Source: a virus. From it: 64,000 bases of DNA. Shown here piece after piece: positions 4,332 through 52,332 of this stretch. The stretch lies in the IMG/VR virus record IMGVR_UViG_3300045988_116799, positions 13,506 to 77,505 of that record, one strand, 5' to 3'. Each line of letters opens with the position of its first letter. The stretch's first letter is position 1. The position numbers and the translations under genes were made by a program. A model generated the notes under the pieces. The model was not told the origin of the DNA and did not search any database. It was given only the letters and a program-made list of their open reading frames with translations.

Positions 4332-5717
4332 TCAGCATTCGATATACTCCATCTGATTAGTCGAGCCTTCAAAGATATATCCGCACTCGTCCACAATCCT
4401 CACGTCCTCCAACGGCAGCAAGGTCTTCTTGCCATATTCCTTCTCTGCTTCCACCATCCACGCCACGATACCCATCATGCCACCATGCACCTCTCTGGCT
4501 ATTGTCTTGCCCGTCAGCTCACCATCAGCAGTCACCTCCGGCATACCGATAAGCATCTTTATCCAATTAGGTTCGCCCGTTTTCTCGCTCTTGCGTATCT
4601 CGTAGTCGAAGACAGTGAACGCCTGTCCGCTACGTGCCAACTCCAGTGGCTTTATATTCGGAGCGTCCATCTTGCGGTCTATGCGTATCTTCTTTGTCAG
4701 TTCTCGTAGCTTCATATCTTTCTCAATTTTCACCATCTCTCCGAATCCGTCAGTATGACGCATCAGTCCGAAGTAGCTGCCCCACGAATTATCGTTATTG
4801 CACATTCTCGCTCTCAATAGCGTGTCTTTGCGTATAAGGCAATAGCCCTTGTTCGAGTCCGTCACGCTCTTGTCGTTGTTGCGTATCACCCTATAACCGC
4901 AGAAGTCAATCCCTCGCTTGTCGTTGATGTCGGTAATCCTTGTATCGCCACGCTTCGCCCTCATCTTCAGCTCATACCACCAGTACTGCCTTATCCTCCA
5001 CTTCATCCGTTGCGCTTCCTCCCTTGTTCGGCAAGCCACCATGCAATTATCTGCATAGCACAATCGCCATTCAGTGTTTCGGCACAGCCACTCATGGAAT
5101 CTCAGCATCAGTATATGGTGAGCAAGCGGACTCGTCGGTGTGCCTACAGGCAGTTGCCCGTCAACAAAGCACAACTCCACGGCAAAGTCTATCAGCCACT
5201 TGTCACCAATAAGGTATTTCAGCTCCTTGCGCAGCACGCTCGGCTTCACGTGCATATAGCATTTTCGTTGATCGGCAGTCACTACCCAGTCCATTTCGCG
5301 CAGATCGTAAAACAGGTGCTTCACTCTTGGAAGAACATAGTTGCTTTTCAGCTCCTTGTGCTTTGCCGACGGAGTAATACCGCACCCTTCCTTGCAGTTA
5401 AGCGACACCAACGGGTCGCGTCTGCGGTATATCGGCTCCAACTTGTTCTTCAGCAGATGTTCATACACTAAAGTTCTGAACGTAGGCGCGTCGATATGCC
5501 TCACCTTCTTGTTGTTGTTCACCTTGGTCAGCTTCCAGTACTTGATGTCCTCATGCCAGCTTCCATCTTTGAGATGTTGTTCAATACTTGCGCATAGCCC
5601 TTTTACATCCTTCAATGCCTCCGCCACCTCTGGGCGTTTCTTTCTGCCCTTAGCGGCACTCTCCACTGCTCTGAGGTAGTCGTCAGCAACGAAGGGTATG
5701 TAGTTGGGTCTATGCAC
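4332..5717 (-). CDS. DGR reverse transcriptase
   Basis: 461-aa ORF with a GTG start. RT motifs: TADQRKCYMHV (A), GQLPVGTPTSPLAHHILM (B), RLCYADNCMVA (C), DFCGYRV (E). Lies 226 nt downstream of the TR on the same strand. Confidence 0.9.
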   Translation of the reverse strand: MHRPNYIPFVADDYLRAVESAAKGRKKRPEVAEALKDVKGLCASIEQHLKDGSWHEDIKYWKLTKVNNNKKVRHIDAPTFRTLVYEHLLKNKLEPIYRRRDPLVSLNCKEGCGITPSAKHKELKSNYVLPRVKHLFYDLREMDWVVTADQRKCYMHVKPSVLRKELKYLIGDKWLIDFAVELCFVDGQLPVGTPTSPLAHHILMLRFHEWLCRNTEWRLCYADNCMVACRTREEAQRMKWRIRQYWWYELKMRAKRGDTRITDINDKRGIDFCGYRVIRNNDKSVTDSNKGYCLIRKDTLLRARMCNNDNSWGSYFGLMRHTDGFGEMVKIEKDMKLRELTKKIRIDRKMDAPNIKPLELARSGQAFTVFDYEIRKSEKTGEPNWIKMLIGMPEVTADGELTGKTIAREVHGGMMGIVAWMVEAEKEYGKKTLLPLEDVRIVDECGYIFEGSTNQMEYIEC

Positions 5718-6051: not shown

Positions 6052-6238
6052 CGGAGACACCAACCTCTTTAGCCATCATCTATATGGATAGCGTCACCTC
6101 TCATGCAGGCTTCAGAGGCTTCGGCCCTCATGCCGAGCTTGTTCTGGTTTTGAGGAAATATTTTGTCTTGATTCATTTTATTCTATCTTTTAAACCACTA
6201 TAAAGTTACTAATTTTGTTTCTGATTGCCAAAGACATG

Positions 6239-6255
6239 GCGCGGTTGCACCGCGC
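6239..6255 (-). promoter_or_regulatory. GC-rich hairpin downstream of the VR (candidate DGR target-recognition structure)
   Basis: GCGCGGT tgc ACCGCGC: 7-bp stem, 3-nt loop, ~36 nt past the target-gene stop; no U-tract follows on the minus strand. Confidence 0.5.
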
Positions 6256-6290
6256 TGCACAACGTTGCACTAAGTTGCACCCGGCTGCGC

Positions 6291-9167
6291 CTATTGCACG
6301 ATGCGACACTGGGCAGAACCGCCATAAAACACGTGCGGAATAGCAGCCGAGTGGTTCGCATTCAGAAACCGAGGCGAACAATACGCATGACTCGCATCGC
6401 CACGAAAGCGCACGGCTATGCGCACGCGCTGGTTGAGAGTAGAACTCCAGTACGGAAATGCCCACGAGTAGAAGCATTGCCAACTGCTAAGATTTCCTCC
6501 ATCGGCAATCTTGTATGGGATATACCCAAGTCTATTCTTACAGTAACCGTCCGACAAGATAGGAGAACCGAAAGTACCAATCTTACCATACGTAGACTCG
6601 AAGCCGAATGTGCCAAGATTGTTCTTGCTGACACCAGACTCATTCACCCACTTTGACTGGTTGGGTTCAAGATAGAAATCTATGTAGTTCTTTAACAGCT
6701 GCTCGGCATTGTAGCTGCCGTTGGTCTGCACCTTGTTAGTGCCCACCATCTCACAGCCGCCTCCCCAATAAGCAAAGACATCACCACTGACGTTCATGCC
6801 GTGCATGAGACTCATTCTAAGACTTAGCTCAAGGTCGTATGTAGCAAGCGTGTTAGCGTCTTTGTAGCCCTTACAAGTGCCAATCTTCTTGCGATACACC
6901 TTACAGTTCATCACTCCGTCAGCCAAGCCCTTTACGCCCGTTATGTTCTTATAGCGGTACGTTACGCCATACGCCTCATACTCGGTGTTCTCAGCAATTC
7001 CGAACTCTGCTGCCCACGATGCTGCCATCTGGCTCTCCATGCACTGCTCCTTTGAACGATATAAATTCACGAACCACGAAAAGTTATTCTTTTCCAACTT
7101 TTCGTTATGTCCAAATGGTGTGCTATCGCCAAATCCGCGATATGTCCATTCTTCCGTACCCTGTTCCTTGCATCGCACACCGCCATTGTCGAGCCATGTA
7201 TTCTCCGAGTTGCAAGCGTCATTGCTTGATATGCCCGAACCAAACAAATTATTGTCGTGCAAGTACTTTGTTCCATACAGCAGCTCCATACACAGTATAA
7301 AGGTGTTGACACCATGAAAACCTCCTTCGGCAAAGGGCAGTGGCGCATTGGTGTCAGCATTGTTGGCACGAGCCTTTTGCATGTTGCTCACCTGAGTCAT
7401 ATCCGATATACGAGGATATGTTCTACCATCGTTTACGTACATCGAACACATATTCTCGCCTGCTCCGCTCGGTCCGTTGGTGGTGTTTGTGTCACCCACG
7501 GCATAGACGTAGAAGAAGTTGCGTGTCTTGTTGCCTACCGTAGTAACAGGACAAGGAGACAGAGCCGTTCCAAGCAGAGGGTATCTGCCAGTATCAATGC
7601 CATCATAGCGCACCTGACGCTTGAAGATGCCCGTCAACACCTTACCGCTATCGCCAGTCTGACGGTCTACTGGATATAGGGTGTCGTAGCGACCGATCAT
7701 CACCGAATACTTTGTCTCTGTGGTCTCCCAAGGCAACAGCTGACGCACCTTGTTACCCTCTCCGTCGTACAAGTCTACCAAACCAAGCGAGTTGTACACC
7801 TCTGTTGCATCGTAAGGATGTGCGCCAGCCTTATCTGTCACAACAACACCATTTTTCAGCGTCAATGGAGTTGTGTGCTCGGCATCGGTATAGAGTTGTA
7901 CATCACACGCAGCACGCATCGCCTCCGTAATACCCACGGTAGGCGCAAACGCACCCGACACAAAGCGGAAGTGATTATTGTCCATCAACTGACCTACAGG
8001 GTGTGTAGCCTCGCCAGTGTTGTCGGTTTGGTCGATAAGGTACGGATGCCAATCGCCCAAGAACTCCTTGTTTCCCTTGCAGTTCTTGAAGTGAGGGTCG
8101 CCCGTCACCTCGTCGTTCTCGCCTACATAGTAATCCTTAACGTTCTCCTTCAGTTCGGCAATGTCAGCAGCGTTCTGTGCCACAGCCTCCTTAGTCTCCT
8201 TCATGTCCACTACAAGCTGATTCACCTTCTCGCCCTCACCGACTTTCACACTCTTGCTTTCACCCTCGCGATTGGTAACAGTCAGCAATCCGTCGTCGGC
8301 AAGAGTGGCATTGACGTTCTCGGCTGCTCTCACCGCATCCACTGTCGAGGCCGCACCCTTGTTGGCAGCATCAGCAGCAGCGTTGGCAGTGTCAGCAGCC
8401 GACTGTGCAGACATCACAGCCTGCTGGCTGGCATCAGCACGCTCCTGCTCAGCCGATACTCGCAGCTTCTCGTTAGCCATACGTCGCGCCTCCGCTTCCG
8501 CTCTCAGCTTCTCGTCGTTGCCTCGTGTGTTCTCAGCCTCCGTGCGGTTCGTCTCGTTGCTCGCACGCTGCGTCTCAGCCTCCGTGCGCTGAGTTTCAGC
8601 CTCTGCACGCTCATGCTCAGCCTTCACGCGCTCCTGCTCATTAGCTGTTGCCGTATTGTTAATAGCCACAGCCTTATCCACCTCCGCCTTAGCCTTACGC
8701 AGCGTGTCGGTAAGCTGTAGGTTGAGAGCTTCGCCCTGCTCAGCAGCCTCCTGCGCACGACTCGCCTGAGCCTGTGCCGATGCCGATGCCGAAGTCGCAG
8801 CCGTAGCCGCTGCATCCACCTTGTCCAAAGCAGCCTGTAGCCCAGCCGTAGCTGTAGTCACGCTCTCCGCAGCCTTAGCCGCTTCCGCTGCCTTGTCGTT
8901 AGCAGTTTTAGCAGCAGCGTTGGCAGCCGTAGCAGCCTCCTGCGCACTCTGAGCACCGTCGTGAGCGCTCTTAGCGTCCACGAGCAGGCTCCACCACTCG
9001 TCCTCACCCACAGGCTCGTGCCCGATGTTGCCGTCCGCCTTGCTCAGATAGGTGTTGCCGCCGTGCGTCACAAGCTGTAGCTTACAGTAAGTCACACTCG
9101 CGTCGTATGCCCCTTTAGGGTGCATGCCGACACTACCCATGTCAATGTACTTCTTTTCCATATTCAC
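6291..9167 (-). CDS. DGR target protein: receptor-binding tail fibre
   Basis: 958-aa ORF (GTG at 9167; the ATG at 9161 is a more likely start). Long Ala/Glu-rich coiled-coil N-terminal part, globular C-terminal part ending in the VR. Confidence 0.85.
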   Translation of the reverse strand: MNMEKKYIDMGSVGMHPKGAYDASVTYCKLQLVTHGGNTYLSKADGNIGHEPVGEDEWWSLLVDAKSAHDGAQSAQEAATAANAAAKTANDKAAEAAKAAESVTTATAGLQAALDKVDAAATAATSASASAQAQASRAQEAAEQGEALNLQLTDTLRKAKAEVDKAVAINNTATANEQERVKAEHERAEAETQRTEAETQRASNETNRTEAENTRGNDEKLRAEAEARRMANEKLRVSAEQERADASQQAVMSAQSAADTANAAADAANKGAASTVDAVRAAENVNATLADDGLLTVTNREGESKSVKVGEGEKVNQLVVDMKETKEAVAQNAADIAELKENVKDYYVGENDEVTGDPHFKNCKGNKEFLGDWHPYLIDQTDNTGEATHPVGQLMDNNHFRFVSGAFAPTVGITEAMRAACDVQLYTDAEHTTPLTLKNGVVVTDKAGAHPYDATEVYNSLGLVDLYDGEGNKVRQLLPWETTETKYSVMIGRYDTLYPVDRQTGDSGKVLTGIFKRQVRYDGIDTGRYPLLGTALSPCPVTTVGNKTRNFFYVYAVGDTNTTNGPSGAGENMCSMYVNDGRTYPRISDMTQVSNMQKARANNADTNAPLPFAEGGFHGVNTFILCMELLYGTKYLHDNNLFGSGISSNDACNSENTWLDNGGVRCKEQGTEEWTYRGFGDSTPFGHNEKLEKNNFSWFVNLYRSKEQCMESQMAASWAAEFGIAENTEYEAYGVTYRYKNITGVKGLADGVMNCKVYRKKIGTCKGYKDANTLATYDLELSLRMSLMHGMNVSGDVFAYWGGGCEMVGTNKVQTNGSYNAEQLLKNYIDFYLEPNQSKWVNESGVSKNNLGTFGFESTYGKIGTFGSPILSDGYCKNRLGYIPYKIADGGNLSSWQCFYSWAFPYWSSTLNQRVRIAVRFRGDASHAYCSPRFLNANHSAAIPHVFYGGSAQCRIVQ
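6310..6417 (-). repeat. DGR variable repeat (VR) in the C-terminus of the tail-fibre gene
   Basis: Matches the TR except at TR adenines; encodes ...RFRGDASHAYCSPRFLNANHSAAIPHVFYGGSAQ, ending about five codons before the stop. Confidence 0.9.
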
Positions 9168-19000: not shown

Positions 19001-21574
19001 GGCATTTAATGATGTCAGAAAACCGTTCCATGCGTTGTTTAACTTCTTAAGGTTTACGTCTGCACGTGTGTTTATGTCAGCTAACAGTTCTTCTTTGGTT
19101 GCTGCGTTACCAATTGTCTTTGTGTATTTTTCTATTGCTTCGGCATTTTTGATAAAATACATAGCCGTAGCTCTATTACGAGCCATGAACTTTTCTCCGA
19201 CATTTTCACCTCTATCATATGCTTCTTTAAGGTTTTTAAGTGCCGTAACCATGCCAACCATCGAAGGGTTGTATTCTTTCTGCAATTTTGACATGCTCAT
19301 CAAAAGCATAGAAAATTTTGACGCAGCCTTAGAAGCACCACCGAACTGATTGCTTGAGAATCCTATCAGTGACGACATTTCCTTGAAACTTATTCCATAA
19401 AGAGACGCGGTAGAACCAGCGGACTTTATGGCTTCTGCCATTTCTCCGAATGACGATGTTGTATTGCGAGAAGCCGTAGCAATAACGTTAGACATTTTCG
19501 TAGCTTCATCTGCCGTTAAATGGTATTCGCCAGATATTTCAGCAATGCTTTTTGCCGACTCCGCAGATGTCTTGCCTGTCAAAGCTCCAAATTCATTAGC
19601 TGCTTTAATCATTCGCGTCAAGGCTTCGGGAGAATCATTCAGACCATCCCACACCTTTACAAACTGAGTAGCTGATTGCGCCATATCCACACAGCTTTTT
19701 GAAGTCGTTGCGGATAATGCGAGAATATTCTGTCGGAGGTCTTTTATCTTGTCGGAATCCATATAGTGGTCAAGCGGTTGTAATGACACACGGAAAGCTT
19801 CTGAAGCCTTAGACATATCATACAATCCTTTGCCTACAGCAGCTATTGCTGCTCCCCAAGCTCCGATTTTTCCAACAAACCCAAACAACGCAGAAAAATC
19901 ACCTTTCATCAATCCGGCAAAAGAACTCTTCAATCCCCCGAATATTCCCTTTACTTTCTTTCCTGCTGCTTCGGCTTCTTTTCCTATGTTTTGCGTTTCT
20001 TTCGCACTCTTTTTTGCTTCTTCGGTAACATCTTTGTAAGATGCACCCATTTCGCGCAATTTTTCTTTACCTTGGATTATTTCACGGGTTATTTCATCTT
20101 GTTTCTGTTTGTTTTCATTTGCCTTGTCACTATTCTTTCCATAAACCTGCGCAATTTCCGAATACTCGTTTTTAAGTATCTTCAATTGGTTTATATCTTC
20201 TTGTATTACGGTTGCAATGTCGTTCTTTGACATTCCGCTCCACATATCGGTGGATGCTGTTTTTGTTTCTTCTGTAGCAGTGCGCAACTTTTCTAACTGT
20301 GCCGTAACTTCGGCAATTTGCTGTTGCTTTTCCTTGATTGCGTCACCTTCGGCAAAATAGTCTTTGATTGTTGTAAATGGGTTGTCCCCTTTGCGCATAG
20401 TAGAAATGAAGTCACCGCCCCATCCGTTGGCGTGGTGGGCTTGCATCTGCTCCAGTTGCTCGTTTAGCTTCTTTAATTCGTCTTCTTTAGCTCGTATTGC
20501 ATCAAGTGTTTTGTTTGTGCTTTCGGTTTCTCGCTTTTGCTCGGTTTCTGCTTTTTGCGCTGTTGAAGTATATGCGTCAGAAAGTCGCTGTAAGCTACTT
20601 GCAATTTCGTTTGCTTCAGTTTTAAGTTTGTTGGCACGTTCCAGAAGGGCATCGGCAGCACGTGCGTTCATTTCGTTGTTGTTATCCACGATGTTGCCAT
20701 CAACAATTTTAAATGTAGTTGCCGCTTCTCTTGCCTTCTTCTCTTTTTCTAACAAATCCGTTTGCTCGGACATTAATTGGCGATAACGTGCTTCTGCGCT
20801 TTCTTTGGCTTTAATGTATTCCTCTTCACTTGTCTTGCCTTGCAATATCCGTTCCGTAAGTTTGTCAAGTGCTGCCGCTTCTGCGTTTGCCGTTTCAGTT
20901 CGTTGTTGGTTTGCTTCTACCGCTTTCTGGTATGCTTGTGTATTATCTTTTACCGCCTGTGTTTCTGTGCCTATTTTCTCGGCATTAACACCGTGCGCCA
21001 CACTTTCTGTGCCTACGGCTGCTGCCGCCCCAGCGTGAACAGTCGCATTTGCGCCAGTTGCTGCCGTTGATATAGAACGACCTGCATTCAAGGTATCAAT
21101 AGCAGCATTGAGAGTACCAACATACTGCTGAGTACTGCCAAATGTACCCAACATTGATAAATATTCGTTGTTAAGTTTCTCTACTAAACTCTGTTGAGAC
21201 TTCAATTGTTCATTAATCTCATTCCATTTCTGAGAACCTTCGGTTGTTTCCGATAGTCTTTTTTGGAGCTTATCAATGGTTGCCTCCGCAGTCTGAGCCT
21301 CCGATGCAAGTTTCTTTAATGCTTCGGGCGTATCGGCAAGTGATTTGTTGATTTCTTCGATACCTTGCTTCAAGGTATGCACGGATTGCTTTGTCTTTTC
21401 GCTGTCAGATGCAGAACTTTGTGCAATATCATTCAATGCCTTAGTCATCTTAGAGCTGACTTCATCCGTTTTTACCCCGAGTAAATTAAGGTCATTTATC
21501 AGCTTATCTAATGACTGCTGTATGTCGGAAATATCCATTTGTCCGCTTATTCCAAGTATCTCGTCTGCTGCCAT
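16049..21574 (-). CDS. Tail tape measure protein
   Basis: 1841-aa ORF, highly helical/coiled-coil. Its core TSSFGEMAEAIKSAGSTASLYGISFKEMSSLIGF resembles the TP901-type TMP core. Canonical position after the chaperones. Confidence 0.9.
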   Translation of the reverse strand: MAADEILGISGQMDISDIQQSLDKLINDLNLLGVKTDEVSSKMTKALNDIAQSSASDSEKTKQSVHTLKQGIEEINKSLADTPEALKKLASEAQTAEATIDKLQKRLSETTEGSQKWNEINEQLKSQQSLVEKLNNEYLSMLGTFGSTQQYVGTLNAAIDTLNAGRSISTAATGANATVHAGAAAAVGTESVAHGVNAEKIGTETQAVKDNTQAYQKAVEANQQRTETANAEAAALDKLTERILQGKTSEEEYIKAKESAEARYRQLMSEQTDLLEKEKKAREAATTFKIVDGNIVDNNNEMNARAADALLERANKLKTEANEIASSLQRLSDAYTSTAQKAETEQKRETESTNKTLDAIRAKEDELKKLNEQLEQMQAHHANGWGGDFISTMRKGDNPFTTIKDYFAEGDAIKEKQQQIAEVTAQLEKLRTATEETKTASTDMWSGMSKNDIATVIQEDINQLKILKNEYSEIAQVYGKNSDKANENKQKQDEITREIIQGKEKLREMGASYKDVTEEAKKSAKETQNIGKEAEAAGKKVKGIFGGLKSSFAGLMKGDFSALFGFVGKIGAWGAAIAAVGKGLYDMSKASEAFRVSLQPLDHYMDSDKIKDLRQNILALSATTSKSCVDMAQSATQFVKVWDGLNDSPEALTRMIKAANEFGALTGKTSAESAKSIAEISGEYHLTADEATKMSNVIATASRNTTSSFGEMAEAIKSAGSTASLYGISFKEMSSLIGFSSNQFGGASKAASKFSMLLMSMSKLQKEYNPSMVGMVTALKNLKEAYDRGENVGEKFMARNRATAMYFIKNAEAIEKYTKTIGNAATKEELLADINTRADVNLKKLNNAWNGFLTSLNANLTPVLTNILRFFNRIIGGASRTADELNYLKNYDKNHKGSRKSAKYVDSATSGMGAFPESAVVAMGANESYQSNKKENLELYRKQRDRLQKWYEAGVNAAKRRYKNASSVALANAGENVVRNVLKKSGNKYSEFNTDILDDFLSRQRRSTYAMQQKTINTDVKLGGIEGTQEKNKTVEKQKKAQEELNKMLLELEQKNIDATIALMQEGTEKKLKEIDNDYKKRLAEIEKQEDEFRKKNKEAGKGATLTDAQSKAIEESKTLASQDRSKKIEKLNNDLIESEKSGLYAFLKEYGDIQDKKLAITEEYADKIAKAENAYQKASLEQQRDNELRSINKENIFEQIDWENVFSDLSSHTKKYLESLRNQLQTLLKSGKLTDIEDIAKVQEKINDINSEISKQGGLFDFVGEKQQEHIRRINEAKEAQEALNAAKSKEADIEKQYEEALRAANYKATDLGVRAIGDDTADIQSNLDKFGIDKSTKEYNEMSTLLSKLAVLEGKLAEARKKTAKATAEAKNKEDGAKRSSAQSVADWFTNAQEFITKKGIDELPGLFENLGMSGVAKKASEGLSAFNDASGAAADFATGNYVGALTKGVSAIQGFTSVLGIGGDNTAKMQNSIDALTQKNNVLAQCLDNLNDTIQNSSLYKAQAAYEDAKKLTAQSEANEQNKMYYEAEKHGRWRVSLNKSVEDNKGWKTAMSTVSSLLGRTVKSSWDFLHLSAEEMAKIRDYDQGETLNKILNEYRKEGGKNGKSGEIPDMVLSYIKNYENAQKKLDEQMTGRLTNMSFDDLKSNFKNTLKDMSKSAKDFADDFSGYLFDAVMDAKIGDLLDNELQSFYDEWAKMAENGLTSDEISQLNKKYNDIVQKGMQYRDEAAKITGYAEVSSQSATNKAIEAITADQASTLIGIGYAMQIAVEQGNETRAQICADISVMRSFAENMAVNMTEMRDIQYEGLGQLQQIVKNTAPIILIREDIANMYNLMKKNY

Positions 21575-24159: not shown

Positions 24160-25251
24160 TTACTTGGTTGTCTTGAGAATAAAGAGGTCGTTCAAGCCGT
24201 TAAAAACAGGCTGCGCCCACATATCGTAGTTTACATGATAGCCTGTATTGTCACGCCAATAACCTACAAGGTTGTCGTCGTGAGAAGAATATGAGACGTT
24301 CGGAATTGGGTCTACCAACTCCAATGGGTCGGAGATCTTCATTATTGCTACCGTTTCAGTACACTGTGCTACAACACGGTCGTCAACGATTAGATTGACT
24401 GTTGAGCCGTCTGCAAGAGTTACGAACTGGTTTTCGTCAATCTGTATTGCGGGCAGCAGAACAGAGCGCAGATAAGTGTTTACTTGGTCTACTGTAAGCA
24501 TCGGCACGGCAGGGTTAATCTGTACAGTGCCAAGGTTAAGCTTGAACGTGTCCTTGATTTCCTTCGCCTTACACATCTTGTAGAATGTGTTTTCAGACAT
24601 ACGGAGCTTCATAATCTTGCGACCCTTCTTCGTTGCCTCGTCCTTAAGCATCATGATGTCGGCAATTGGCGTTGCTGTCTCTGTACCCCAGTTGTTGGTA
24701 ACGGAAAGCTCCTTGATGCCGAGGTCGAAGGTGTAGGACACGTTTGCCTTTGCGTTGTTGGTGCGAGAGACAGTTTGTTTGCCCGTGTATAATCCTTCAT
24801 AATAAAGCATATCAAGACGTTTGTGTGGTGCAATAACAGCACGCTCAAACGGACGGAAAGAAAACTCTATAAGTTTGTCGTAATGTGCATTGAGTTGTTC
24901 CTGCGTATAATCACGGCCTTCAGCGTCACGATAACGACCTTCAAGCTGATGCAGCTGGTCAAGATAATTGTTGTCAAGCTCCCACTCATCACCATAGCGA
25001 CCAATAGAGCCAGTCAACTGACCAAAGTCAGGCATATGATGTACAGGCTTCTCAGCGTTCTGGGCGATAACAGAACCAACCATGGCAGCAGTGTATTCTG
25101 CGAGATTAGCCTGATAAACCTTTGCAGCACAATATTCTACCTCTTTAATCTCGTTCTTCCACAAAGCTTTATAAGTGGAGGTCTTCATGCTTTTGTCAAT
25201 ATAGCTCTGAAAAGATTTTGGGTCTAATAGCTGTTTTAGAATACTATTCAT
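24160..25251 (-). CDS. Major capsid protein (lambda gpE-like by size and position)
   Basis: 363-aa ORF following the scaffold and decoration-like genes, matching the lambda Nu3-D-E order. Confidence 0.7.
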   Translation of the reverse strand: MNSILKQLLDPKSFQSYIDKSMKTSTYKALWKNEIKEVEYCAAKVYQANLAEYTAAMVGSVIAQNAEKPVHHMPDFGQLTGSIGRYGDEWELDNNYLDQLHQLEGRYRDAEGRDYTQEQLNAHYDKLIEFSFRPFERAVIAPHKRLDMLYYEGLYTGKQTVSRTNNAKANVSYTFDLGIKELSVTNNWGTETATPIADIMMLKDEATKKGRKIMKLRMSENTFYKMCKAKEIKDTFKLNLGTVQINPAVPMLTVDQVNTYLRSVLLPAIQIDENQFVTLADGSTVNLIVDDRVVAQCTETVAIMKISDPLELVDPIPNVSYSSHDDNLVGYWRDNTGYHVNYDMWAQPVFNGLNDLFILKTTK

Positions 25252-27144: not shown

Positions 27145-27996
27145 TTACTTGTTTTTGTTTTCTCCGTTAATTTCGGCAATGGCTTGCTTTACATTAAAAT
27201 CGTTGCCGTAAAGCGCAATAATAAAGCGTTTGCCACGCTGATTCCATACAAGGGTTGTACTGGTTGATATTTCACCATTGCTTGACTGATAGTTGTAGGT
27301 GCGTGTACCTGCCAAGTTCCAACCTTTATAAGGCATCTTTAAGTGCCATTGTCCCGATTGCGAGTAAATTATACCTAATTCTTTTAGCTTGGCGTTGAGC
27401 GAGCGTGCCGTAATGTGCAAGTCGTCGGCAACTTGCGTTGTTGTAATGCAAGTTGTTGAAGCAAGTGTGTTGTCGTAGTATTCTGCTTTAGGTGCTGCGA
27501 TTTTGATTTGCTTGTCTTGCGCATCTATCTGTGCGTCTTTTTGTTCGATAACTATTTCTTGATAACGACCTTGTTCTTCAAGCTCTTTAATGCGCTTTTC
27601 GTGCTCGGCAATAACCTTGTCAGCAACTTTCATTGCACGTGCTAAAATTGTTGCAGGAGTGTCATTCTGTGTTGTTGCAATATAGCCACCTTTGGTGCGA
27701 ATTTCGTGAAGGATTTTCTTTACACCTTTCTTGAACTGCTTAGCAATTGGTTTGCGTGATTGCATAAGCAATTCATAAACACCTTCCTCTGTTAAGAACC
27801 ACATACTGCCACCACGACTTAACTTTAAATTAAGTCGTTCGTCCTCGTCAACATTGGCAACAGCACGTGACACATTCTTTAAACCAAGCCAATTCTGTAC
27901 ATCATTAGCCCGAAATAACGGGTTTTCAACAGACCCCCATACATCAATTTCCTTATCAAGGAAGGTTGATTTACTAATAATTCTGATTTCTTCCAT
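27145..27996 (-). CDS. Bro-N / KilAC-type phage antirepressor-like protein
   Basis: 283 aa. N-terminus has a Bro-N-like NPLFRANDVQNWLG...WFLTEEGVYELLMQSRKPIAKQF. C-terminus is KilAC-like: APKAEYYDNTLAS...TTTQVADDLHITARSLNAKLKELGII. Confidence 0.7.
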   Translation of the reverse strand: MEEIRIISKSTFLDKEIDVWGSVENPLFRANDVQNWLGLKNVSRAVANVDEDERLNLKLSRGGSMWFLTEEGVYELLMQSRKPIAKQFKKGVKKILHEIRTKGGYIATTQNDTPATILARAMKVADKVIAEHEKRIKELEEQGRYQEIVIEQKDAQIDAQDKQIKIAAPKAEYYDNTLASTTCITTTQVADDLHITARSLNAKLKELGIIYSQSGQWHLKMPYKGWNLAGTRTYNYQSSNGEISTSTTLVWNQRGKRFIIALYGNDFNVKQAIAEINGENKNK

Positions 27997-45797: not shown

Positions 45798-48700
45798 TTC
45801 AAATAAGGCGTTTCCTTTGATATAATAAATGGATGCGCCTTTCTTTTTAAATTCCTTGGCAATCTTTAAAATTTTATCGTGAGAACCATCTAAAATATCG
45901 TATGGATAAGTTATGGATTCAATACAATCAATTGTAAGCTGCCCGTGGTATTGTAGTTCTAGATACGAAGATATATGTTCTTTTTTAAATTCTACGAGGT
46001 TTGTTGTTTGTATGTCTATTGATGTTGGTGTATTATAAAAATCATCAAACGAGCACGCTTTGGGGTCGCTAACGAGAGACGGCTGATATCTAACCCCTAA
46101 AGAATCTCCTGCCGTCCACGTTGCGACAACTTTGTCTTTCTTAAAACGGACTTCCACGTTACCATAACTTCTTGCTGTGTTGTTTTGCATTGAGCGCAGT
46201 ATATTGTGGTCAAGAAGGTTTCCGTATTTCTCATATTCTTTTCTGTCTAATTGCTGAACTGCAAGGTCTTTTCGCGGAAGGCCAAACATCTTATGGGCGG
46301 CACTTAAACGTGAATGTGTAGGACTAATTTTTCCTGTTGTGGACGTAGAACCTAAATAACCTCCGGATGAGCCAGTCTCGAAAGTGTTCATAAATTTTGA
46401 ATTTAAGACCTTTTCGAGTATGGAATCTTTTATATTCATTCCTAAATCATGCTCACTGAACACTTTTTGCATCAGTAATTCTATCTCATTCTTATGCGTT
46501 TTTGCTGTGACACCATAATAACGGCTGTTCTTCTCGTATTCGCTTATTGCATCTTCAAGATATTCAAGAGTCTTTGGAAATTTCGTACCAAGGCGTTTTT
46601 TCAAGTCTTCTATTGTTTCGTGATTAACTGCTGTTTCTTTTAATAGCTTTGGCGATTTCAATTTGTTTTTTAATAGTTGCTGATATTTTCTATTAATCTC
46701 CTGCGCTTTGCTTTTTGCCAAATCCAAGTCAACATTTCTCCGTGTCAGTATATGATTTATCTCTGATGCCAGTTCTTTGATTTTTCTACTTTTTGATAGA
46801 GTAGCATATGCGAGTGCATCGCTGACACTGTCGGCAACGGCTTTAATGTCAATCTTTCTCTCTACTATACGTAATTCTTTCTTATACGCATCTTGAGCAA
46901 CTTTCCATGTATCGTATTTTTTATGTTCTTCAACCCATTTAATCTCAGATTCCAGAAAGCGTTTCCTTGGAAGTAATTCAACGCTTTCTCTTGCCAGTCT
47001 TGCTTCAATAGCTTTGTTAATTGCAATAGCTTCTGACATTGAGTAATTGCGAGCGACAAGGATAGGATTTTCAAGGCGTGACAGAGATAAAATCTTTTTC
47101 CCTTGTTCTTTCAATGCTTTGGCTTCTTCATAAATATTTACATAATCTCTTGCTTCAAGAGCTGTCTTTAATGCCGATGTGTCCACATCTTTAATGCCAT
47201 TCATATAGCGTAAGACGCTTTCGCCATAATGAACGTAAGCTCTTTCTGTTGCAAGTCGTCTTTGTCGTTGTTCGGCTCTTCTTTTGATTGATTCTGCGTC
47301 TCGCTTTGCGTGTCGTGCCTTAGCAATCTCTTGTATGGCATCACGGCGTGACATTGCGTCAGCACCCATTTGTTTGCGCTGTGTTGCATCCAAAAACTTC
47401 ACCCAATAACTTTTATTGTTTGCCAAGTGCCACGCCAACTTGTCCCGTTTATAAGCGTCCACGATTTTGTTTGCATTATCCTCAATGTACCGTTTATATT
47501 GGTCGGGCATATCTTTAATACGGTTAGGAGATACGTAATTGGACATATCTTCTCCGTTGAACAGCCGTTTGTAGAATTGCTTGCGTTCTTCGCCACTTAT
47601 CATTATAGGGTCACTGGTACACATGCAGTTTGAGCCCCAAAAGCATTTGCCGTCTTTCTGTATATACATGATGTGATTGTTCTCAAGTGTAACGTCGTAC
47701 ACAAAGCCGATGTATTCAACTTTCTCCTTGTTAAATACAGTGGCGGTTGCTGAATCGCATTCACTTATTCTGTAACAGTCATATCGCTGCTTTATAACTG
47801 TACCATCTTTTTTGACAGTATTTTTAGGTGACATTATTCTATATGACGGTCGATGTCCTACTTTTAACAATAGCAAACCTATTTCAGCTGCCATTTGAGG
47901 AGAAGATGTAAAATACATTCTTTCTCCATGATTTGGAGTACATACATGACCTCTGTTGCCCATAAAAGGACGTGGCTTCTTGATATGTCCGTCGCACACA
48001 ATAAAAGCATCAAGAAATATTTGGATTTGTCTCTTTGATGCATTTAAAATTTCTTGTGGTATATATTTATAATGTGCAGTTCCGTATTTTAAAAGCTCTT
48101 GACCAAAAGCACGGTGATATAAAACAATGGTGCTTTTATAAACGTGTGGCGTAAAACCCATCTTCTTGATACAAGTTTGCATACGTTTCCAAGCAGGCTG
48201 TCCTTTTTCTTGCGACAAAACAATACCGTAGTCATGTTGCATACTACCGTCTGCAAGGTAATACCCCATAAATTCACAATACACATCAAAAGGTATATTT
48301 TTGTCGCCAAACATAATGTTCGTGCGGTCTTTGGCGGTATTGACAGCGGAACGATAGAAAGCCCCCATACTTGGCTTGTATTCCGTAGCGTTGCATTTTT
48401 TTATTTCGTGAGCACCGCTTTTGCTGATATACACCATTTGATGTTCTGGAGTAACAAGACATTCCAATGAACGGTTAAAAAAGTGTATAAGTTCTCCATT
48501 GTAAGGGTATTTTTGTACTCCTACAATATTTGTTTCTTCTATTTCACGTGTCTGTGGATTTAAAGAATATACAACATCCTGAGTCGTAACATCTTTAAAT
48601 TCTTTCCATCCTTTTGTAGTCAGAACCTGAGTACCTTCGGCATAACATTGAGGGTGCCAGCCATTCCACACAAAGCCTTTAGGATAGTACCCTTCAAGCT

Positions 48701-49550
48701 CGTCGCAAATGTCAGCATCTTCGTCTGGGTCGTGCTGTGGAGATACGTGTATATGCTGCCCTATGACGAAAGGCTCGTTTGCCCAACGCTCGTTCCTTGC
48801 TGTGTGGTATGCTGCATTGATTTCGGTACGAGCCACACGTAAAGCATTCTTTCTTGCGGAGCGATATACGCCCAGCCCTACATGTTCGAGCGGTTCTTCT
48901 ACAAAGCGTACACGTCCGTCAATAATGCGCTTCCTGCGCCAAGTGACAATATCTTTCTTCTGTCCGTTCTTTAACACTTTTACTGTGTGGTAACGACGAT
49001 ACATCATATCCGGGTTATTCAAATATTGTCGTATTCTTCTACCCACTTCCTCTGCGGATTCACCCTTTCCCAGTCCGTCGGCTATCACGTTAGACATCGC
49101 CATCTCGAACTCTGCTTTTGTTTGCTGACAGTAGTTCCATACGGACCGCGCGAGGTTCAAGCCTATCTTAGAATTGAGTCTATTGGCTATGAACGTCGCA
49201 GCAGCCGTTTTTCTTGCGGTTTCTAATGCTTTGTCTGTTAGCACAGAGAATTGCCCTATTGTATCATTGTCGTGCGCATACGCAAGAGAAACGCCGCTTG
49301 TTATGCCGCTTTTGTAGCATAACATGCTATTTTGGAAATAGTCGTTAAATATGTCTTCAAGTCGAGCTTTAAGCAAAGGAAAATTGTCAAAATTGAAAAG
49401 AGCGTCATTTTCGAGCACGTCTTCGCTATAGCCAAGAGCGAGCAGCTTCCTGACATAACTTCCGTACAACATGCCAAGTCGGCGGTTGTATTCGGCGAAT
49501 AGCCTGTTTAAATCTTCCTTTCGCTTTTTAGCTGTAAGTTTTTCTGCCAT
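45792..49550 (-). CDS. Head morphogenesis protein (MuF/SPP1 gp7-like) with an intein and a ~600-aa C-terminal extension
   Basis: 1252 aa, directly downstream of the portal gene. The N-terminal ~300 aa are gp7/MuF-like. The WHPQ|C...N|CMC junction restores an HPxCxC-type motif once residues 302-641 are removed. Confidence 0.75.
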   Translation of the reverse strand: MAEKLTAKKRKEDLNRLFAEYNRRLGMLYGSYVRKLLALGYSEDVLENDALFNFDNFPLLKARLEDIFNDYFQNSMLCYKSGITSGVSLAYAHDNDTIGQFSVLTDKALETARKTAAATFIANRLNSKIGLNLARSVWNYCQQTKAEFEMAMSNVIADGLGKGESAEEVGRRIRQYLNNPDMMYRRYHTVKVLKNGQKKDIVTWRRKRIIDGRVRFVEEPLEHVGLGVYRSARKNALRVARTEINAAYHTARNERWANEPFVIGQHIHVSPQHDPDEDADICDELEGYYPKGFVWNGWHPQCYAEGTQVLTTKGWKEFKDVTTQDVVYSLNPQTREIEETNIVGVQKYPYNGELIHFFNRSLECLVTPEHQMVYISKSGAHEIKKCNATEYKPSMGAFYRSAVNTAKDRTNIMFGDKNIPFDVYCEFMGYYLADGSMQHDYGIVLSQEKGQPAWKRMQTCIKKMGFTPHVYKSTIVLYHRAFGQELLKYGTAHYKYIPQEILNASKRQIQIFLDAFIVCDGHIKKPRPFMGNRGHVCTPNHGERMYFTSSPQMAAEIGLLLLKVGHRPSYRIMSPKNTVKKDGTVIKQRYDCYRISECDSATATVFNKEKVEYIGFVYDVTLENNHIMYIQKDGKCFWGSNCMCTSDPIMISGEERKQFYKRLFNGEDMSNYVSPNRIKDMPDQYKRYIEDNANKIVDAYKRDKLAWHLANNKSYWVKFLDATQRKQMGADAMSRRDAIQEIAKARHAKRDAESIKRRAEQRQRRLATERAYVHYGESVLRYMNGIKDVDTSALKTALEARDYVNIYEEAKALKEQGKKILSLSRLENPILVARNYSMSEAIAINKAIEARLARESVELLPRKRFLESEIKWVEEHKKYDTWKVAQDAYKKELRIVERKIDIKAVADSVSDALAYATLSKSRKIKELASEINHILTRRNVDLDLAKSKAQEINRKYQQLLKNKLKSPKLLKETAVNHETIEDLKKRLGTKFPKTLEYLEDAISEYEKNSRYYGVTAKTHKNEIELLMQKVFSEHDLGMNIKDSILEKVLNSKFMNTFETGSSGGYLGSTSTTGKISPTHSRLSAAHKMFGLPRKDLAVQQLDRKEYEKYGNLLDHNILRSMQNNTARSYGNVEVRFKKDKVVATWTAGDSLGVRYQPSLVSDPKACSFDDFYNTPTSIDIQTTNLVEFKKEHISSYLELQYHGQLTIDCIESITYPYDILDGSHDKILKIAKEFKKKGASIYYIKGNALFEL
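47628..48647 (-). mobile_element. Intein with LAGLIDADG homing endonuclease (340 aa, residues 302-641)
   Basis: Starts CYAEGTQVLTTKGW (block A). LAGLIDADG-like FMGYYLADGS and FLDAFIVCDGH. Block F/G FVYDVTLENNHIMYI...CFWGSN followed by +1 Cys. Confidence 0.8.
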
Positions 49551-49552
49551 AC

Positions 49553-51046
49553 TTATTCTTCATTCGTCACAGACTGCGATGCGTTCGCCGACTCACCAAC
49601 ACCCATAAACGCCGCCTGTTGCATCATTTCACTTTCCTGCTCTTCTTTCATTTCTTTCTCCACGCTGTCGGCATCATCGTTGAGCGGATTAAGCTCAATA
49701 GAACGACGTTGTGAAGTAGAAGGCTTACCTCCATTGCTCTGTGTGATAAGTTGTAGCAGTTCAACATCATTCTTGGGTATGTAAGGTTCAAACAGGGGCT
49801 CAAAATCAATGTCCTCCGCTACGCTTGCATCAATACCCTTAACGTATATGCCTGCATTGCAAATACCGTTAGCAACGATGTTGCTTCTGCGTGTGAACAT
49901 TTCTCCGTACATTTCAGTTTTGTTGCCGACTTTCATAAATGGGTCGGTAAACATAAGACGTATGGCAGCACCGCTTGTGTTGTTGCCTAATGTCTTCATG
50001 TTTTCAAATGAAATGTCGGGAGTTTGCGTGAACGAGAATATGATATTAAACAGGTAAGCAATCTCGCCTTTCACACTCTCTGGAGAGTGGTCCCATGACA
50101 GCACTCTCATTTCCGTTTCTTTTCCACCTTGGAATACCGAACCTTGCTCGCCTTTTTCGGCAAAACCTTCCAGACGACCTTGAATAAAGTACTTTGGCGT
50201 GCCAAAATAATCGTTCGTGTCGCCCCAGTTCGATATACATTCTTCTACACGGTCGCACGCCCACTGAACATCTGCCCATTCCGATTTGTATTGGTAGTAA
50301 TAAACTACTGGTATCTTCGTGAAGCCATGTGCCTTTGCTTCGGTGAGTGTCCATCCCGAGCCATTATTGATGTACTTATACACGAATCTATCTGTGTAGA
50401 CATCAAAATGCAGCTCTTGTGTTCCAAGCTCGTCAAACGTGTAGTATTCACGTCCGAAACCATCCATCCGATGCCAATCATTAAAATGCGGATATAAATT
50501 ATCTCCATTTGCAGGAGAAAGAAGCTGTACTCGAATTTCACCGCCAAGCCGTCCATTTTCGTCTGTGGTCATGTACCATAGCTCTGCTGCTTCACATTGA
50601 GAAGACACTGTGCGAACAAGCTGCTTGTCAAAATACTTCATTTTGTTGTCGTGATAGCAGTGTGTAATCGCATCGAACAGTAGCTGCTGCTTGTTGTTGA
50701 GTGTCTTAATGTCTACGCCATGAGAATTCGCCTTGTAAGTTACATGGTTTGTGAGCAAAAAGCCCACTAACCTGTCGACTATCACTCTCTGTGTCGGTAA
50801 CGCTATTCTGACGCGGTCAACAAGTTTTGTCTTGTAAATGACCTGCCCTGATAAAGGGTCTTTCTGCTCTGTCGGAACTTTCACCTTCTTTTTCGGACGT
50901 TTTCCCTCGTCAAAGATATCGTGCTTGTAGGCATCCCATTGGCGCATAAGTTCTTCAAAGCTGTTGTGCTGTGGCAGCTTTCGTGCCGTTAGTAACATAT
51001 GTACTGTATTGGCATCGTTTGCGAGTATTTCTGTAATCTTCTTCAT
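49553..51046 (-). CDS. Portal protein
   Basis: 497-aa ORF between the large terminase and the MuF-like gene, with an acidic C-terminus; positional and size call. Confidence 0.7.
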   Translation of the reverse strand: MKKITEILANDANTVHMLLTARKLPQHNSFEELMRQWDAYKHDIFDEGKRPKKKVKVPTEQKDPLSGQVIYKTKLVDRVRIALPTQRVIVDRLVGFLLTNHVTYKANSHGVDIKTLNNKQQLLFDAITHCYHDNKMKYFDKQLVRTVSSQCEAAELWYMTTDENGRLGGEIRVQLLSPANGDNLYPHFNDWHRMDGFGREYYTFDELGTQELHFDVYTDRFVYKYINNGSGWTLTEAKAHGFTKIPVVYYYQYKSEWADVQWACDRVEECISNWGDTNDYFGTPKYFIQGRLEGFAEKGEQGSVFQGGKETEMRVLSWDHSPESVKGEIAYLFNIIFSFTQTPDISFENMKTLGNNTSGAAIRLMFTDPFMKVGNKTEMYGEMFTRRSNIVANGICNAGIYVKGIDASVAEDIDFEPLFEPYIPKNDVELLQLITQSNGGKPSTSQRRSIELNPLNDDADSVEKEMKEEQESEMMQQAAFMGVGESANASQSVTNEE

Positions 51047-51144: not shown

Positions 51145-52332
51145 TTATATTATTCCCAATATTTCGCTCGCACTCATGCCGCTGCCGTAAGCACCAAGTA
51201 CTTTGTCAAGTACAACATAACGGATTCCATCTAATCCATGATTCCACATGTCAATTGGTACATTGCGCCACTTTCCTTCTTTGTCCTGTTGCCAAGTATA
51301 GTTGTTGAACTCCTTGCGAATATTCACAGAACGGCTCGTAACATGTATCCTGAATTGTTGCATCTTCATAATGCCTGCGTTTATTGAGCCTTGAAACTTT
51401 GTAACTGGTTTGATATTCAGACCAGCATTGTATATTTCATCAACAAGACGTGGGTCTGCGCTCTCTGATATTATTTCTAAGTCGCCTTTTATAGCTTTAA
51501 GCTCTCTGATTATATCGTCAGTCATCATTTTCGTTCGATAACAACGTTCATCAACATATAGGTCGTTACCCCAAAGATACACTTCAACAATGGCTGTTGG
51601 GTCGTTGGTGTAACCAAAGTCCATGCCAATCCAATGATGTCTATGTGCTTCAACTGGTATGTAATCATCTACAACCACATTCTCAAATACAAGACCCTCA
51701 ACAATAGCACGCTGTCCGAGTCCGTATATGCGCCACAAACTCGGGTTTTTCCACTTCAAGCTTTCAATTTCATCAATAACCTTTTGCTCAAGGAATGGGT
51801 TGTCTTTATATGTGGATATGAACCAGTAAGTATTTTTCTCCTCGTTTACTTGGTTTATCCAGTGTTCTTCTGAGAATGAAGGGTTATAGTCGAGTATGGA
51901 GAACTCTGTAGTACGCATCTGTAGCTGCTGCCATTCTATGAAAGACAGCTCATTTGCCTCATTTACAAACAATATCTTACGCTTAGAACCACGCACCTTT
52001 TGCTCGTTGTCAGTGGAGAAGAACTCAATCCAAGAACCATTAGGAAATGTGTAGACATATTCTGATTTGTTCATTGACTTGTCATTCCACCAACCTAAAG
52101 AAAGCATTACGTTCTTAAAATCGCGGTATACAGTGCGTTTGATTGAGGGCATACCAGCACGTATTATGGAAACTGTTGTTCCGGCGTTATTAAAGCAATA
52201 GATACAAAGAAACTGCACAACCGACCATGTTTTGGCCGAACGCGAGCTTCCTTGTAATGATACGGTAGTAAATCCCGCTTTCTTGGCGGCATCTACTCTC
52301 ATGTAGTTCTTTGCTAAAAATACGTGTGGCAT
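51145..52332 (-). CDS. Terminase large subunit
   Basis: 395 aa; Walker A-like GSSRSAKT, Walker B-like ILFVNEANE, nuclease-half acidic residues; position after the small subunit. Confidence 0.8.
   Translation of the reverse strand: MPHVFLAKNYMRVDAAKKAGFTTVSLQGSSRSAKTWSVVQFLCIYCFNNAGTTVSIIRAGMPSIKRTVYRDFKNVMLSLGWWNDKSMNKSEYVYTFPNGSWIEFFSTDNEQKVRGSKRKILFVNEANELSFIEWQQLQMRTTEFSILDYNPSFSEEHWINQVNEEKNTYWFISTYKDNPFLEQKVIDEIESLKWKNPSLWRIYGLGQRAIVEGLVFENVVVDDYIPVEAHRHHWIGMDFGYTNDPTAIVEVYLWGNDLYVDERCYRTKMMTDDIIRELKAIKGDLEIISESADPRLVDEIYNAGLNIKPVTKFQGSINAGIMKMQQFRIHVTSRSVNIRKEFNNYTWQQDKEGKWRNVPIDMWNHGLDGIRYVVLDKVLGAYGSGMSASEILGII

Follow-up and report, generated by a model that had tools for sequence, protein, structure and literature searches.

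The question raised by this locus is whether a segment of 340 amino acids (aa) within a phage head protein is an ordinary domain of that protein or an intein. The locus lies in a stretch of 64,000 nucleotides (nt) (here called the window), which corresponds to positions 13,506 to 77,505 of the IMG/VR virus record IMGVR_UViG_3300045988_116799. Its minus strand encodes a MuF-like head-morphogenesis protein of 1,252 aa. An earlier note, made from the sequence alone, had proposed that positions 47628 to 48647 of this gene encode an intein with a LAGLIDADG endonuclease. Our results make it very probable that they encode a class 1 intein with an in-frame LAGLIDADG homing endonuclease, located between Gln301 and the Cys of the HPxCxC motif in a MuF protein of the Bxa family, from a gut siphophage or prophage of Bacteroidales.

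The limits of the insertion could be set to the residue. Translation of the open reading frame (ORF) placed it at residues 302 to 641, exactly the coordinates of the earlier note. The segment opens with the Cys of CYAEGTQVLTTKGW (residue 302) and closes with the Asn of DGKCFWGSN (residue 641); the next residue, 642, is a Cys, in agreement with the proposed end at CFWGSN followed by Cys. The two motifs read as LAGLIDADG-like, FMGYYLADGS and FLDAFIVCDGH, were located at intein residues 126 to 135 and 211 to 221, respectively. A search with the conceptually spliced N-terminal 450 aa retrieved 816 proteins; the best 120 were 84 to 93% identical, covered 94 to 100% of the query in a single alignment and were 432 to 758 aa long. 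Alignment of the full 1,252-aa protein with eight homologues opened a single clean gap of 340 columns between Q301 and C642 in seven of them, the eighth (P0010) being truncated later, and all of the aligned homologues read WH(P/A/V/S)(Q/N)-CMC(T/A)SDP (here and below, a hyphen within a motif marks the insertion point). More than 100 homologues that are 85 to 93% identical lack the segment and read WHPQ-CMCTSDP. Intein-free alleles were 85 to 96% identical to the window gene, with a gap of exactly 340 aa or 1,020 nt. One of them (L003, on a 99-kb contig) matched nt 1 to 905 and 1917 to 2256 of the gene, with 1,020 nt missing, and its DNA across the empty site is TGGCATCCTCAA-TGCATGTGTACC (the C side is also given as TGCATGTGTACCAGTGAC). 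The predicted spliced junction is GWHPQ-CMCTSDPIMISGEER, so that excision joins WHPQ to CMCT, as had been suggested, and restores the arrangement of the intein-free homologues. The comparison with these homologues thus returned an exact insertion point and a 340-aa gap, not an ordinary conserved domain of the family. Identical boundaries (WHPx-C...WGSN-CxC) were found in 76 of the 79 IMG/VR loci fetched, and both flanks (WHPx-CY...SN-CxC) were present in 13 of 16 GTDB loci. Because these boundaries are both exact and recurrent in the two collections, the insertion is far beyond what chance would produce.

The insertion point falls in the best-conserved part of the host protein. When conservation was counted across 142 diverse MuF domains, C282, H299 and C302 (spliced numbering; the latter is the Cys at position +1 of the intein) reached 100%, C304 (position +3) 99% and H273 98%, which bears out the claim that the insertion sits inside a conserved HPxCxC motif. 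In view of these values, the intein interrupts the Cys/His cluster that is best conserved in MuF and would use an invariant Cys as the ligation nucleophile. Choosing a site in an invariant motif is typical intein behavior. The cluster formed by C282, H299, C302 and C304 is putatively metal binding. In one intein-bearing MuF (P0153), the intein is followed by CMDTC and not by CxC, a rare exception to a motif that is otherwise conserved at 99 to 100%.

The intein itself carries the residues expected of class 1, namely, Cys1, the TxxH of block B, the Asp and His of block F, the C-terminal Asn and the Cys at +1, with the sole exception of the penultimate His. Invariance of individual residues (see the table below) was judged in 11 divergent members of the intein family, which are 46 to 61% identical, and VTxxH was found in 76 of 76 IMG/VR copies. 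In the structural model, both LAGLIDADG helices end in Asp-Gly and then run into a beta-strand, so that two helices, each with its acidic residue and Gly, and the strand that follows are predicted as in LAGLIDADG endonucleases. The Ser at the penultimate position, already pointed out in the earlier note, is Ser339, and all 76 complete IMG/VR copies end in (F/V/Y)WGSN-C; it is therefore a trait of the family. Complete GTDB copies also end in WGSN, with a few variants (WSSN, WSGN and WNSN), while more remote relatives, located in GTP cyclohydrolase I and RpoB, carry a Gly there. An antisense ORF of 108 aa (48144 to 48470, plus strand) within the endonuclease-coding region showed no LAGLIDADG-like features and is probably a chance ORF.

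The best match among sequences of solved structures prompted us to consider a class 3 assignment. Class 3 inteins have the triplet WCT (Trp at B:12, Cys at F:4 and Thr at G:5) and need no nucleophile at position 1 (PMC7891396, PMC4031507). In the window intein, the three positions are occupied by Met71, Asp318 and Gly338, and Cys1 is invariant, for which reasons class 3 was discarded and the intein was assigned to class 1.

Comparison with known structures gave a consistent picture. Using phmmer against PDB sequences, we found the AceL NrdHF intein (6zgq; E value of 3.8e-8, intein residues 4 to 98, 30% identity), both Hint halves of the Mja KlbA intein (2jmz), whose VYDLTVEDNH aligned with VYDVTLENNH of the window intein (residues 316 to 325), and the TliVMA intein (7qsu) in its LAGLIDADG region. 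An AlphaFold2 model of the intein, for which 18 relatives were used as input, had a mean pLDDT (predicted local distance difference test) of 91.9 and a pTM (predicted template modeling score) of 0.89. The best 16 Foldseek matches of this model in the PDB were all endonuclease-bearing inteins (TliVMA, PhoVMA, PI-SceI, PI-PfuI and PI-TkoII; E values of 7e-17 to 8e-10); many intein structures were matched with a probability of 1.0, as is proper to a Hint fold. Mini-inteins, bacterial intein-like (BIL) and Hedgehog Hint domains and free LAGLIDADG enzymes appeared only later in the list. Sequence blocks, PDB matches, the model with its Foldseek matches and the insertion polymorphism all agree with an intein that contains a LAGLIDADG endonuclease.

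The MuF gene starts 2 nt past the stop codon of the portal gene, and the order terminase large subunit (TerL), portal and MuF, all on the minus strand, is identical in the syntenic loci L001 and L003. The spliced sequence matched phrog_16625 ("Bxa ADP-ribosyl transferase"; E value of 6.8e-84, residues 114 to 626) and phrog_7625 ("head morphogenesis"; 6.8e-37), in each case as a single stretch crossing the junction. Other "head morphogenesis" families matched were phrog_1657, phrog_2468 and phrog_25879 (best E value across the set, 6.8e-37), and tblastn led to head morphogenesis or minor capsid genes of Riemerella and Porphyromonas phages. The Pfam profile PF04233 gave 12.7 bits on the extein core of the window protein, under its gathering threshold of 29.6, and its full-profile scores in relatives were also below that threshold (22.7 bits in P0273 and 18.2 bits in P0223); in these relatives the end of the profile falls on WHPxCRC, which coincides with the proposal that HPxCxC is the end of the MuF domain. 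A model of the intein-free MuF domain (pLDDT of 83) had no significant Foldseek match in the PDB, while its fold matches in BFVD, with E values of 1e-6 to 2e-3, were named "MuF-like minor capsid protein," "Phage head morphogenesis domain" and "ADP-ribosyltransferase domain and MuF-like fusion protein." Together with the position of the gene directly after the portal gene, these matches support a MuF-type head-morphogenesis or minor capsid protein, as first read from the sequence, and the window protein is a divergent branch of the MuF/SPP1 gp7 family (PF04233). Megablast of the MuF-portal region against GenBank phages gave no match, and hence there is no named close relative in that collection.

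Close relatives have about 450 N-terminal residues in common in the alignment and then continue into unrelated C termini; one sister cluster bears the name "Papain fold toxin 1, glutamine deamidase." The host thereby appears to be a polymorphic-toxin carrier of the Bxa type, Bxa being a MuF-domain polymorphic toxin of Bacteroides prophages (PMC11699363). The C-terminal ~500 aa of the window protein (45792 to ~47300) had no match among Pfam, PHROG or PDB sequences and matched no known toxin, and no obvious immunity-like ORF of at least 40 aa was found on the same strand directly downstream of the MuF gene. Within this region there is a stretch, YLGSTSTTG, that is reminiscent of the "STS" motif of ADP-ribosyltransferases. 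Gene calling splits the gene into two ORFs in some genomes, one of 803 aa (MuF, intein and linker) and one of 440 aa (the C-terminal module, starting with MKEQGKKILSL). Two members of the 90% cluster of the window protein, P0296 and P0294, are both found on one 42-kb contig, and their two-ORF call is a sign that a frameshift or stop separates the carrier from the C-terminal module, an event that has no connection with the intein. A naturally split, gene-interrupted intein, which these two proteins had led us to suspect, was discarded, as the break comes ~160 residues past the intein, where the MuF linker gives way to the C-terminal module.

Several comparisons bear on whether the intein moves. 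With respect to the intein-positive locus L001, the intein DNA of the window was 99.3% identical (1,013 of 1,020 nt), the N-extein 94.4% and the first 330 nt of the C-extein 87.0%. In six IMG/VR genomes the intein was 98.1 to 99.0% identical to that of the window, with flanks at 75 to 99% (distal N-extein), 81 to 100% (proximal N-extein) and 78 to 90% (C-extein). The same mismatch was found at the protein level in two representatives, P0143 (intein, 100%; N-extein, 80%; C-extein, 84%) and P0144 (95%, 78% and 85%, respectively). In another locus (L002), identity to the window was 84 to 88% at nt 1 to 600, 93 to 98% in the 300 nt adjoining the intein and 97% inside it, a rise that resembles a gradient of coconversion. 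The ratio of nonsynonymous to synonymous polymorphism (pN/pS) inside the intein was 0.06 to 0.18, with no stop codons, as would be seen in a sequence under purifying selection. The GC content of the intein is 37.5%, and that of the adjoining extein is 44 to 46%. One protein (P0178, residues 303 to 446) has at the identical MuF site a mini-intein of 144 aa with no endonuclease, ending in FWGSN-CMC, that looks like a decayed relative of the family, and a mini-intein is the expected late stage of the homing cycle. Taken together, the near-identical inteins in diverged exteins, the pN/pS values and the mini-intein indicate ongoing homing, and the data match a cycle of invasion, fixation and endonuclease loss; on this comparative evidence, the intein appears to be mobile now or to have been so recently. 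As a separate observation, L002 (ERZ28658687 scaffold_19727) is a contig of 2.5 kb that follows the window gene as far as the first LAGLIDADG motif (intein nt ~380). After locus position ~2348 it switches to unrelated sequence, apparently a gene on the opposite strand; the assembly may be chimeric, or the endonuclease domain may carry a real insertion.

We propose the following sequence of events, in which the splicing steps are modeled on the established class 1 pathway (PMC4031507). The whole precursor of 144.4 kDa would be translated first. Cys1, aided by Thr66 and His69, would then form a thioester at the N-terminal junction by an N-S acyl shift, and Cys642 of the extein would take over the N-extein by trans-thioesterification. 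Asn340 would cyclize with the help of Asp318 and His325 of block F, with no penultimate His, and free an intein of 39.2 kDa, after which an S-N shift would restore the peptide bond and yield a MuF protein of 912 aa (105.2 kDa) with an intact WHPQ-CMC. The freed intein, acting as a LAGLIDADG endonuclease, may cut intein-free MuF alleles at TGGCATCCTCAA-TGCATGTGTACC. If two related phages or prophages meet in one cell, recombinational repair would copy the intein together with some of the flanking extein.

Some observations weigh against this interpretation. The penultimate His, the usual helper of Asn cyclization, is missing. The intein profiles stayed below their curated cutoffs (TIGR01445, 16.9 versus 24.5 bits; TIGR01443, 15.3 versus 15.6 bits), as did the LAGLIDADG_3 profile PF14528 (20.6 versus 22.5 bits; E value of 5.5e-4). 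The counts behind pN/pS are small (7 to 11 synonymous versus 2 to 8 nonsynonymous differences), shuffling of MuF modules, as seen in the polymorphic C termini, could by itself explain part of the incongruence between intein and extein, and splicing, DNA cleavage at the proposed target and homing are all inferred. With regard to the missing His, the AceL NrdHF intein lacks both assisting His residues and yet splices within minutes (PMC7891396), and two titles in the reference list of PMC4031507, those of Chen, Benner and Perler (2000) and of a paper on the Ssp DnaE structure, imply splicing without a penultimate His. As for the profiles, the search with hidden Markov models that the earlier note had suggested did find both intein and LAGLIDADG matches, although all fell slightly short of the curated cutoffs; the intein models are short and generic, and the window's intein family is divergent. 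We therefore based the identification of the intein on the PDB sequence matches, the structural model and the comparative data, instead of on these subthreshold generic models (Pfam and NCBIfam).

Among the alternatives, the one that fares best, although we consider it quite improbable, is an intein that splices but whose endonuclease is inactive, so that it is inherited vertically, moves only by general recombination of MuF genes and is "fixed" and on its way to a mini-intein. MuF genes are indeed mosaic, in that genes alike elsewhere differ in their C-terminal modules and N-terminal segments, a mini-intein derivative exists (P0178), PF14528 is under its threshold, and a strict pattern for the first LAGLIDADG motif was matched in only 64 of the 76 IMG/VR copies. 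However, conservative variants of motif 1 were probably overlooked by so strict a regular expression, neither of the catalytic Asp-Gly pairs varies among members that are no more than 46 to 61% identical, and the pN/pS of the whole intein is 0.06 to 0.18. Besides, inteins that are 98 to 100% identical within exteins that are 75 to 90% identical, and the similarity of L002 that climbs toward the junction, form the pattern expected from homing.

Much less credible is a Hint domain that does not ligate and works as an autoproteolytic "releasing" module, cutting the C-terminal toxin region from the head-targeting domain of MuF. HINT domains of polymorphic toxin systems were reportedly described as autoproteolytic releasing modules by Zhang et al. 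in 2012. The missing penultimate His, the BIL domains among the weaker Foldseek matches and a host that is a MuF protein of the polymorphic-toxin type (PMC11699363) would suit such a module, but the insertion is inside the invariant HPxCxC of the MuF core, ~450 residues upstream of the variable region, and not at the boundary between MuF and toxin. Moreover, it contains a complete homing endonuclease, ends in Asn and is followed by a +1 Cys that is an invariant residue of the extein. Most orthologues, including those bearing toxins, do without it, and the same intein is found in MuF proteins without a toxin (P0129 and P0130). A toxin-releasing HINT domain was discarded on account of the position of the intein, its endonuclease content and its presence in toxin-less MuFs.

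A dead insertion (a nonsplicing remnant inactivating MuF) or a chimeric contig is likewise extremely improbable: the short contig L002 does diverge abruptly inside the intein, and L001 looked frameshifted at first, with its gene called as two ORFs, but the 17-nt "insertion" that made L001 look frameshifted consists of Ns left by scaffolding and is therefore no sign of decay, the intein sequence is under apparent purifying selection, 76 of 79 IMG/VR and 16 of 16 GTDB copies are uninterrupted, and the identical 1,252-aa protein was found on several contigs of up to ~80 kb in independent assemblies (JGI, ENA and Logan), which in effect refutes this alternative.

We also considered an extension of the intein interpretation that seems rather unlikely to us as a whole. 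The WGSN inteins would form a distinct clade specialized on HPx-CxC of MuF, in which Asn cyclization is assisted by the invariant Cys335, Trp337, Gly338 and Ser339 and not by a penultimate His, and splicing that depends on redox state or zinc might gate the fitness of the MuF-toxin for packaging. The conditional part of this idea comes from the location of the intein, which splits a putative metal-binding Cys/His knuckle of a toxin-carrying head protein.

Regarding the distribution of these inteins, a word-indexed search with the intein retrieved only 20 proteins, 18 of them MuF-like with the insertion at HPx-CxC. An exhaustive HMMER search with the N-extein gave 2,262 representative clusters (E value of ≤1e-3); among the best 150 of these MuF clusters, 17 had an insertion at exactly the intein point. 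A pattern scan of GTDB species genomes recovered 16 loci, all uninterrupted and mostly from Bacteroidales. The carriers included Prevotella vespertina A2879, Muribaculaceae, Paludibacteraceae, Porphyromonadaceae, Fermentimonas, Dysgonamonadaceae and Flavobacteriaceae, and more distant ones belonged to Omnitrophota, Staphylococcaceae and Scalindua. The member of the family in P. vespertina A2879 (L004) is 52% identical. The same scan of IMG/VR recovered at least 108 loci. The toxin-less MuF proteins with the same intein (P0129 and P0130) are short, 190 aa after excision. In GenBank phage genomes, the nearest inteins were only 23 to 25% identical and were located in other genes (those of a Lak megaphage, an EBPR siphovirus methylase and mycobacteriophage nucleotidyltransferases). 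Two distant inteins (P0139 and P0140; 22 to 30% identical), in GTP cyclohydrolase I and the RNA polymerase beta subunit, have Cys in place of the block F Asp and end in GN; they may be class 3-like cousins of the MuF intein lineage.

The window as a whole is a siphovirus-like phage or prophage that also encodes a DNA methyltransferase. Its head module is split, with TerL, portal and MuF at 45.8 to 52.3 kb and the major head protein at 24.2 to 25.3 kb. The ~20 kb between the two groups (25300 to 45800) contain mostly plus-strand or accessory genes, among them an anti-repressor, and a DUF4942 gene in the syntenic loci. Near the start of the window is what looks like a diversity-generating retroelement. 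Its reverse transcriptase matched phrog_1423 (6.7e-24), and a pair of 114-nt repeats is 88% identical, one copy being at the 3' end of a 958-aa ORF that adjoins the tail fiber gene. Of the mismatches between the repeats, 13 of 14 fall on adenines of the noncoding copy, which would be the template repeat.

Table 1. Coordinates of the intein, its conserved blocks, the host gene and other features of the window
Feature	Position	Strand	Basis or remarks
Intein, 340 aa (39.2 kDa), class 1 (probable), in-frame LAGLIDADG homing endonuclease	47628..48647	-	Exact gap in intein-free homologues, PDB matches, model
Block A, CYAEGTQVLT, Cys1 nucleophile (predicted)	48618..48647	-	C1, L9, T10 invariant
Block B, LVTPEHQMVY, Thr66-x-x-His69, B:12 is Met, not Trp	48429..48458	-	T66, H69, M71 invariant
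Homing endonuclease domain, ~intein residues 101-304, approximate limits	47736..48347	-	Model secondary structure; Foldseek to I-Tsp061I, PI-SceI; mini-intein comparison
LAGLIDADG motif 1, FMGYYLADGS, predicted catalytic Asp133 ending helix 120-133	48243..48272	-	D133, G134 invariant; helix-then-strand in model
LAGLIDADG motif 2, FLDAFIVCDGH, predicted catalytic Asp219 ending helix 205-219	47985..48017	-	D219, G220 invariant; motif in 76/76 IMG/VR copies
Block F, GFVYDVTLENNHIMYI, intein residues 314-329, Asp318 and His325	47661..47708	-	V316, Y317, D318, H325 invariant; aligns to block F of Mja KlbA (2jmz)
Block G, DGKCFWGSN, C-terminal Asn340, penultimate Ser339 replacing His	47628..47654	-	C335, W337, G338, S339, N340 invariant
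Cys+1 (residue 642) and CMC of extein HPxCxC	47619..47627	-	C302, C304 (spliced numbering) 100%, 99% conserved
WHPQ, N-side half of split extein motif	48648..48659	-	H299 100%, W298 92%, P300 92% conserved
Cys282 of extein (DADICDEL), upstream invariant Cys of putative metal-binding cluster	48705..48707	-	100% conserved
N-extein, residues 1-301, last residues GFVWNGWHPQ	48648..49550	-	
Host gene, MuF-like minor capsid/head-morphogenesis protein, 1252 aa	45792..49550	-	ORF; precursor holding intein; variable polymorphic-toxin-type C-terminal region
Portal protein gene, directly upstream of MuF gene	49553..51046	-	phrog_64 portal 1e-56; PF05133 SPP1_portal in syntenic L001, L003
Terminase large subunit (TerL) gene, intein-free	51145..52332	-	phrog_2 5.9e-37; PF04466 and PF17288 in syntenic L001, L003
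Anti-repressor	27145-27996		
Major head protein	24160-25251		
Tape measure protein	16049-21574		
Tail fiber	10001-15604		
Diversity-generating retroelement candidate	4332-9167		Reverse transcriptase 4332..5717 (-), repeats 5938-6051 and 6304-6417, target ORF 6291..9167 (-)

How, then, does this intein compare with known systems? The earlier note was right in regarding a minor head protein as an unusual host for an intein only in relative terms, and such a host is not unprecedented, since inteins in MuF proteins were already reported in 2004, 2016 and 2025. One of these reports concerns COG2369, which presumably comprises the homologues of Mu gp30. The 2004 report described the intein in the Mu F (gp30) head-assembly protein of a Mu-like prophage of Methylococcus capsulatus Bath (PMC517821), which, like the window intein, is found in a head morphogenesis protein of the MuF family in a prophage, and whose authors raised splicing as a possible gate on head morphogenesis. 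However, by its description, this Mca MupF intein is degenerate, has no recognizable endonuclease, is nearest to archaeal IF-2 inteins and has a proteobacterial host, whereas the window intein has an endonuclease. In the 2016 survey (Novikova et al.; PMC4760082), Table 3 has 14 inteins in COG2369 "phage Mu F," with Bacteroidetes included, that are probably the same group of Bacteroidetes prophage MuF inteins or a sister group. That entry is a count in a table, where the family is confusingly described as portal/Gp6, and it comes with no site, sequence features or mobility analysis. Finally, inteins in the actinobacteriophage minor capsid protein (IPR006528) were described in 2025 (bioRxiv 10.1101/2025.01.02.630785). 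They share with ours the host family and the presence of identical inteins in divergent exteins separated by intein-free relatives, a pattern that their authors read as ongoing invasion. They differ in that they reportedly have only noncanonical endonucleases (anti-sense LAGLIDADG) and in the class 3 REQ3, while the intein of the window is of class 1, has a canonical in-frame LAGLIDADG and comes from phages of Bacteroidota. A further intein-bearing member of the MuF group is evidently UniProt A0A8S5Q538, a 1,098-aa gut-virome protein to which automatic annotation gave the name "Intein splicing domain [Siphoviridae sp. ctHiz26]" (BFVD); the MuF model matched its predicted structure with an E value of 7.8e-45 and 47% identity over 772 columns across the insertion.

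In its architecture, a Hint domain interrupted by a two-motif LAGLIDADG endonuclease, the window intein resembles TliVMA/PhoVMA (7qsu, 7qss and 7qst), PI-SceI (1vde and 1lws), PI-PfuI (1dq3) and PI-TkoII (2cw7), with full-length Foldseek TM (template modeling) scores of ~0.5 to 0.6. It differs from them in sequence (9 to 18% identity only), in host protein and in block G (WGSN versus the usual HN), and it is shorter than PI-SceI (340 versus 454 aa), without the extra DNA-recognition region. The closest solved relative by sequence, the split intein AceL NrdHF (6zgq; PMC7891396), likewise has Met at B:12 and no penultimate His, but it is a naturally split class 3 mini-intein with a block F Cys as branch point, in contrast to the contiguous, endonuclease-bearing window intein with Cys1, Asp at F:4 and Gly at G:5. 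As to the host, it is similar to the MuF toxins Bxa and Apk2, from prophages of Bacteroidales and others (PMC11699363), in its conserved N-terminal MuF domain, its location in the head module and its interchangeable C-terminal modules, although Bxa itself has no intein and the C-terminal region of the window protein matches no known toxin.

Inteins in the MuF family were therefore already known, and our understanding of inteins or of MuF proteins is unchanged. What distinguishes the present case is a class 1 "WGSN" lineage without the penultimate His and with a canonical in-frame LAGLIDADG that appears dedicated to HPx-CxC of the MuF/toxin carriers of Bacteroidota phages, with clear signs of current spread. 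It provides a clean and well-populated natural case of an intein that seems to be still homing among human and animal gut phages, in a structural and putative toxin-delivery protein and not in an enzyme of DNA metabolism. The mature product (predicted at 912 aa and 105 kDa) is misstated in databases, as the window protein is called "hypothetical" and its sister is named only for the toxin domain. The WGSN family might be drawn on for Cys1/Cys+1 inteins that can do without a penultimate His, and the position of the intein singles out C...HPxCxC as functionally critical in MuF, a domain that is still poorly understood.

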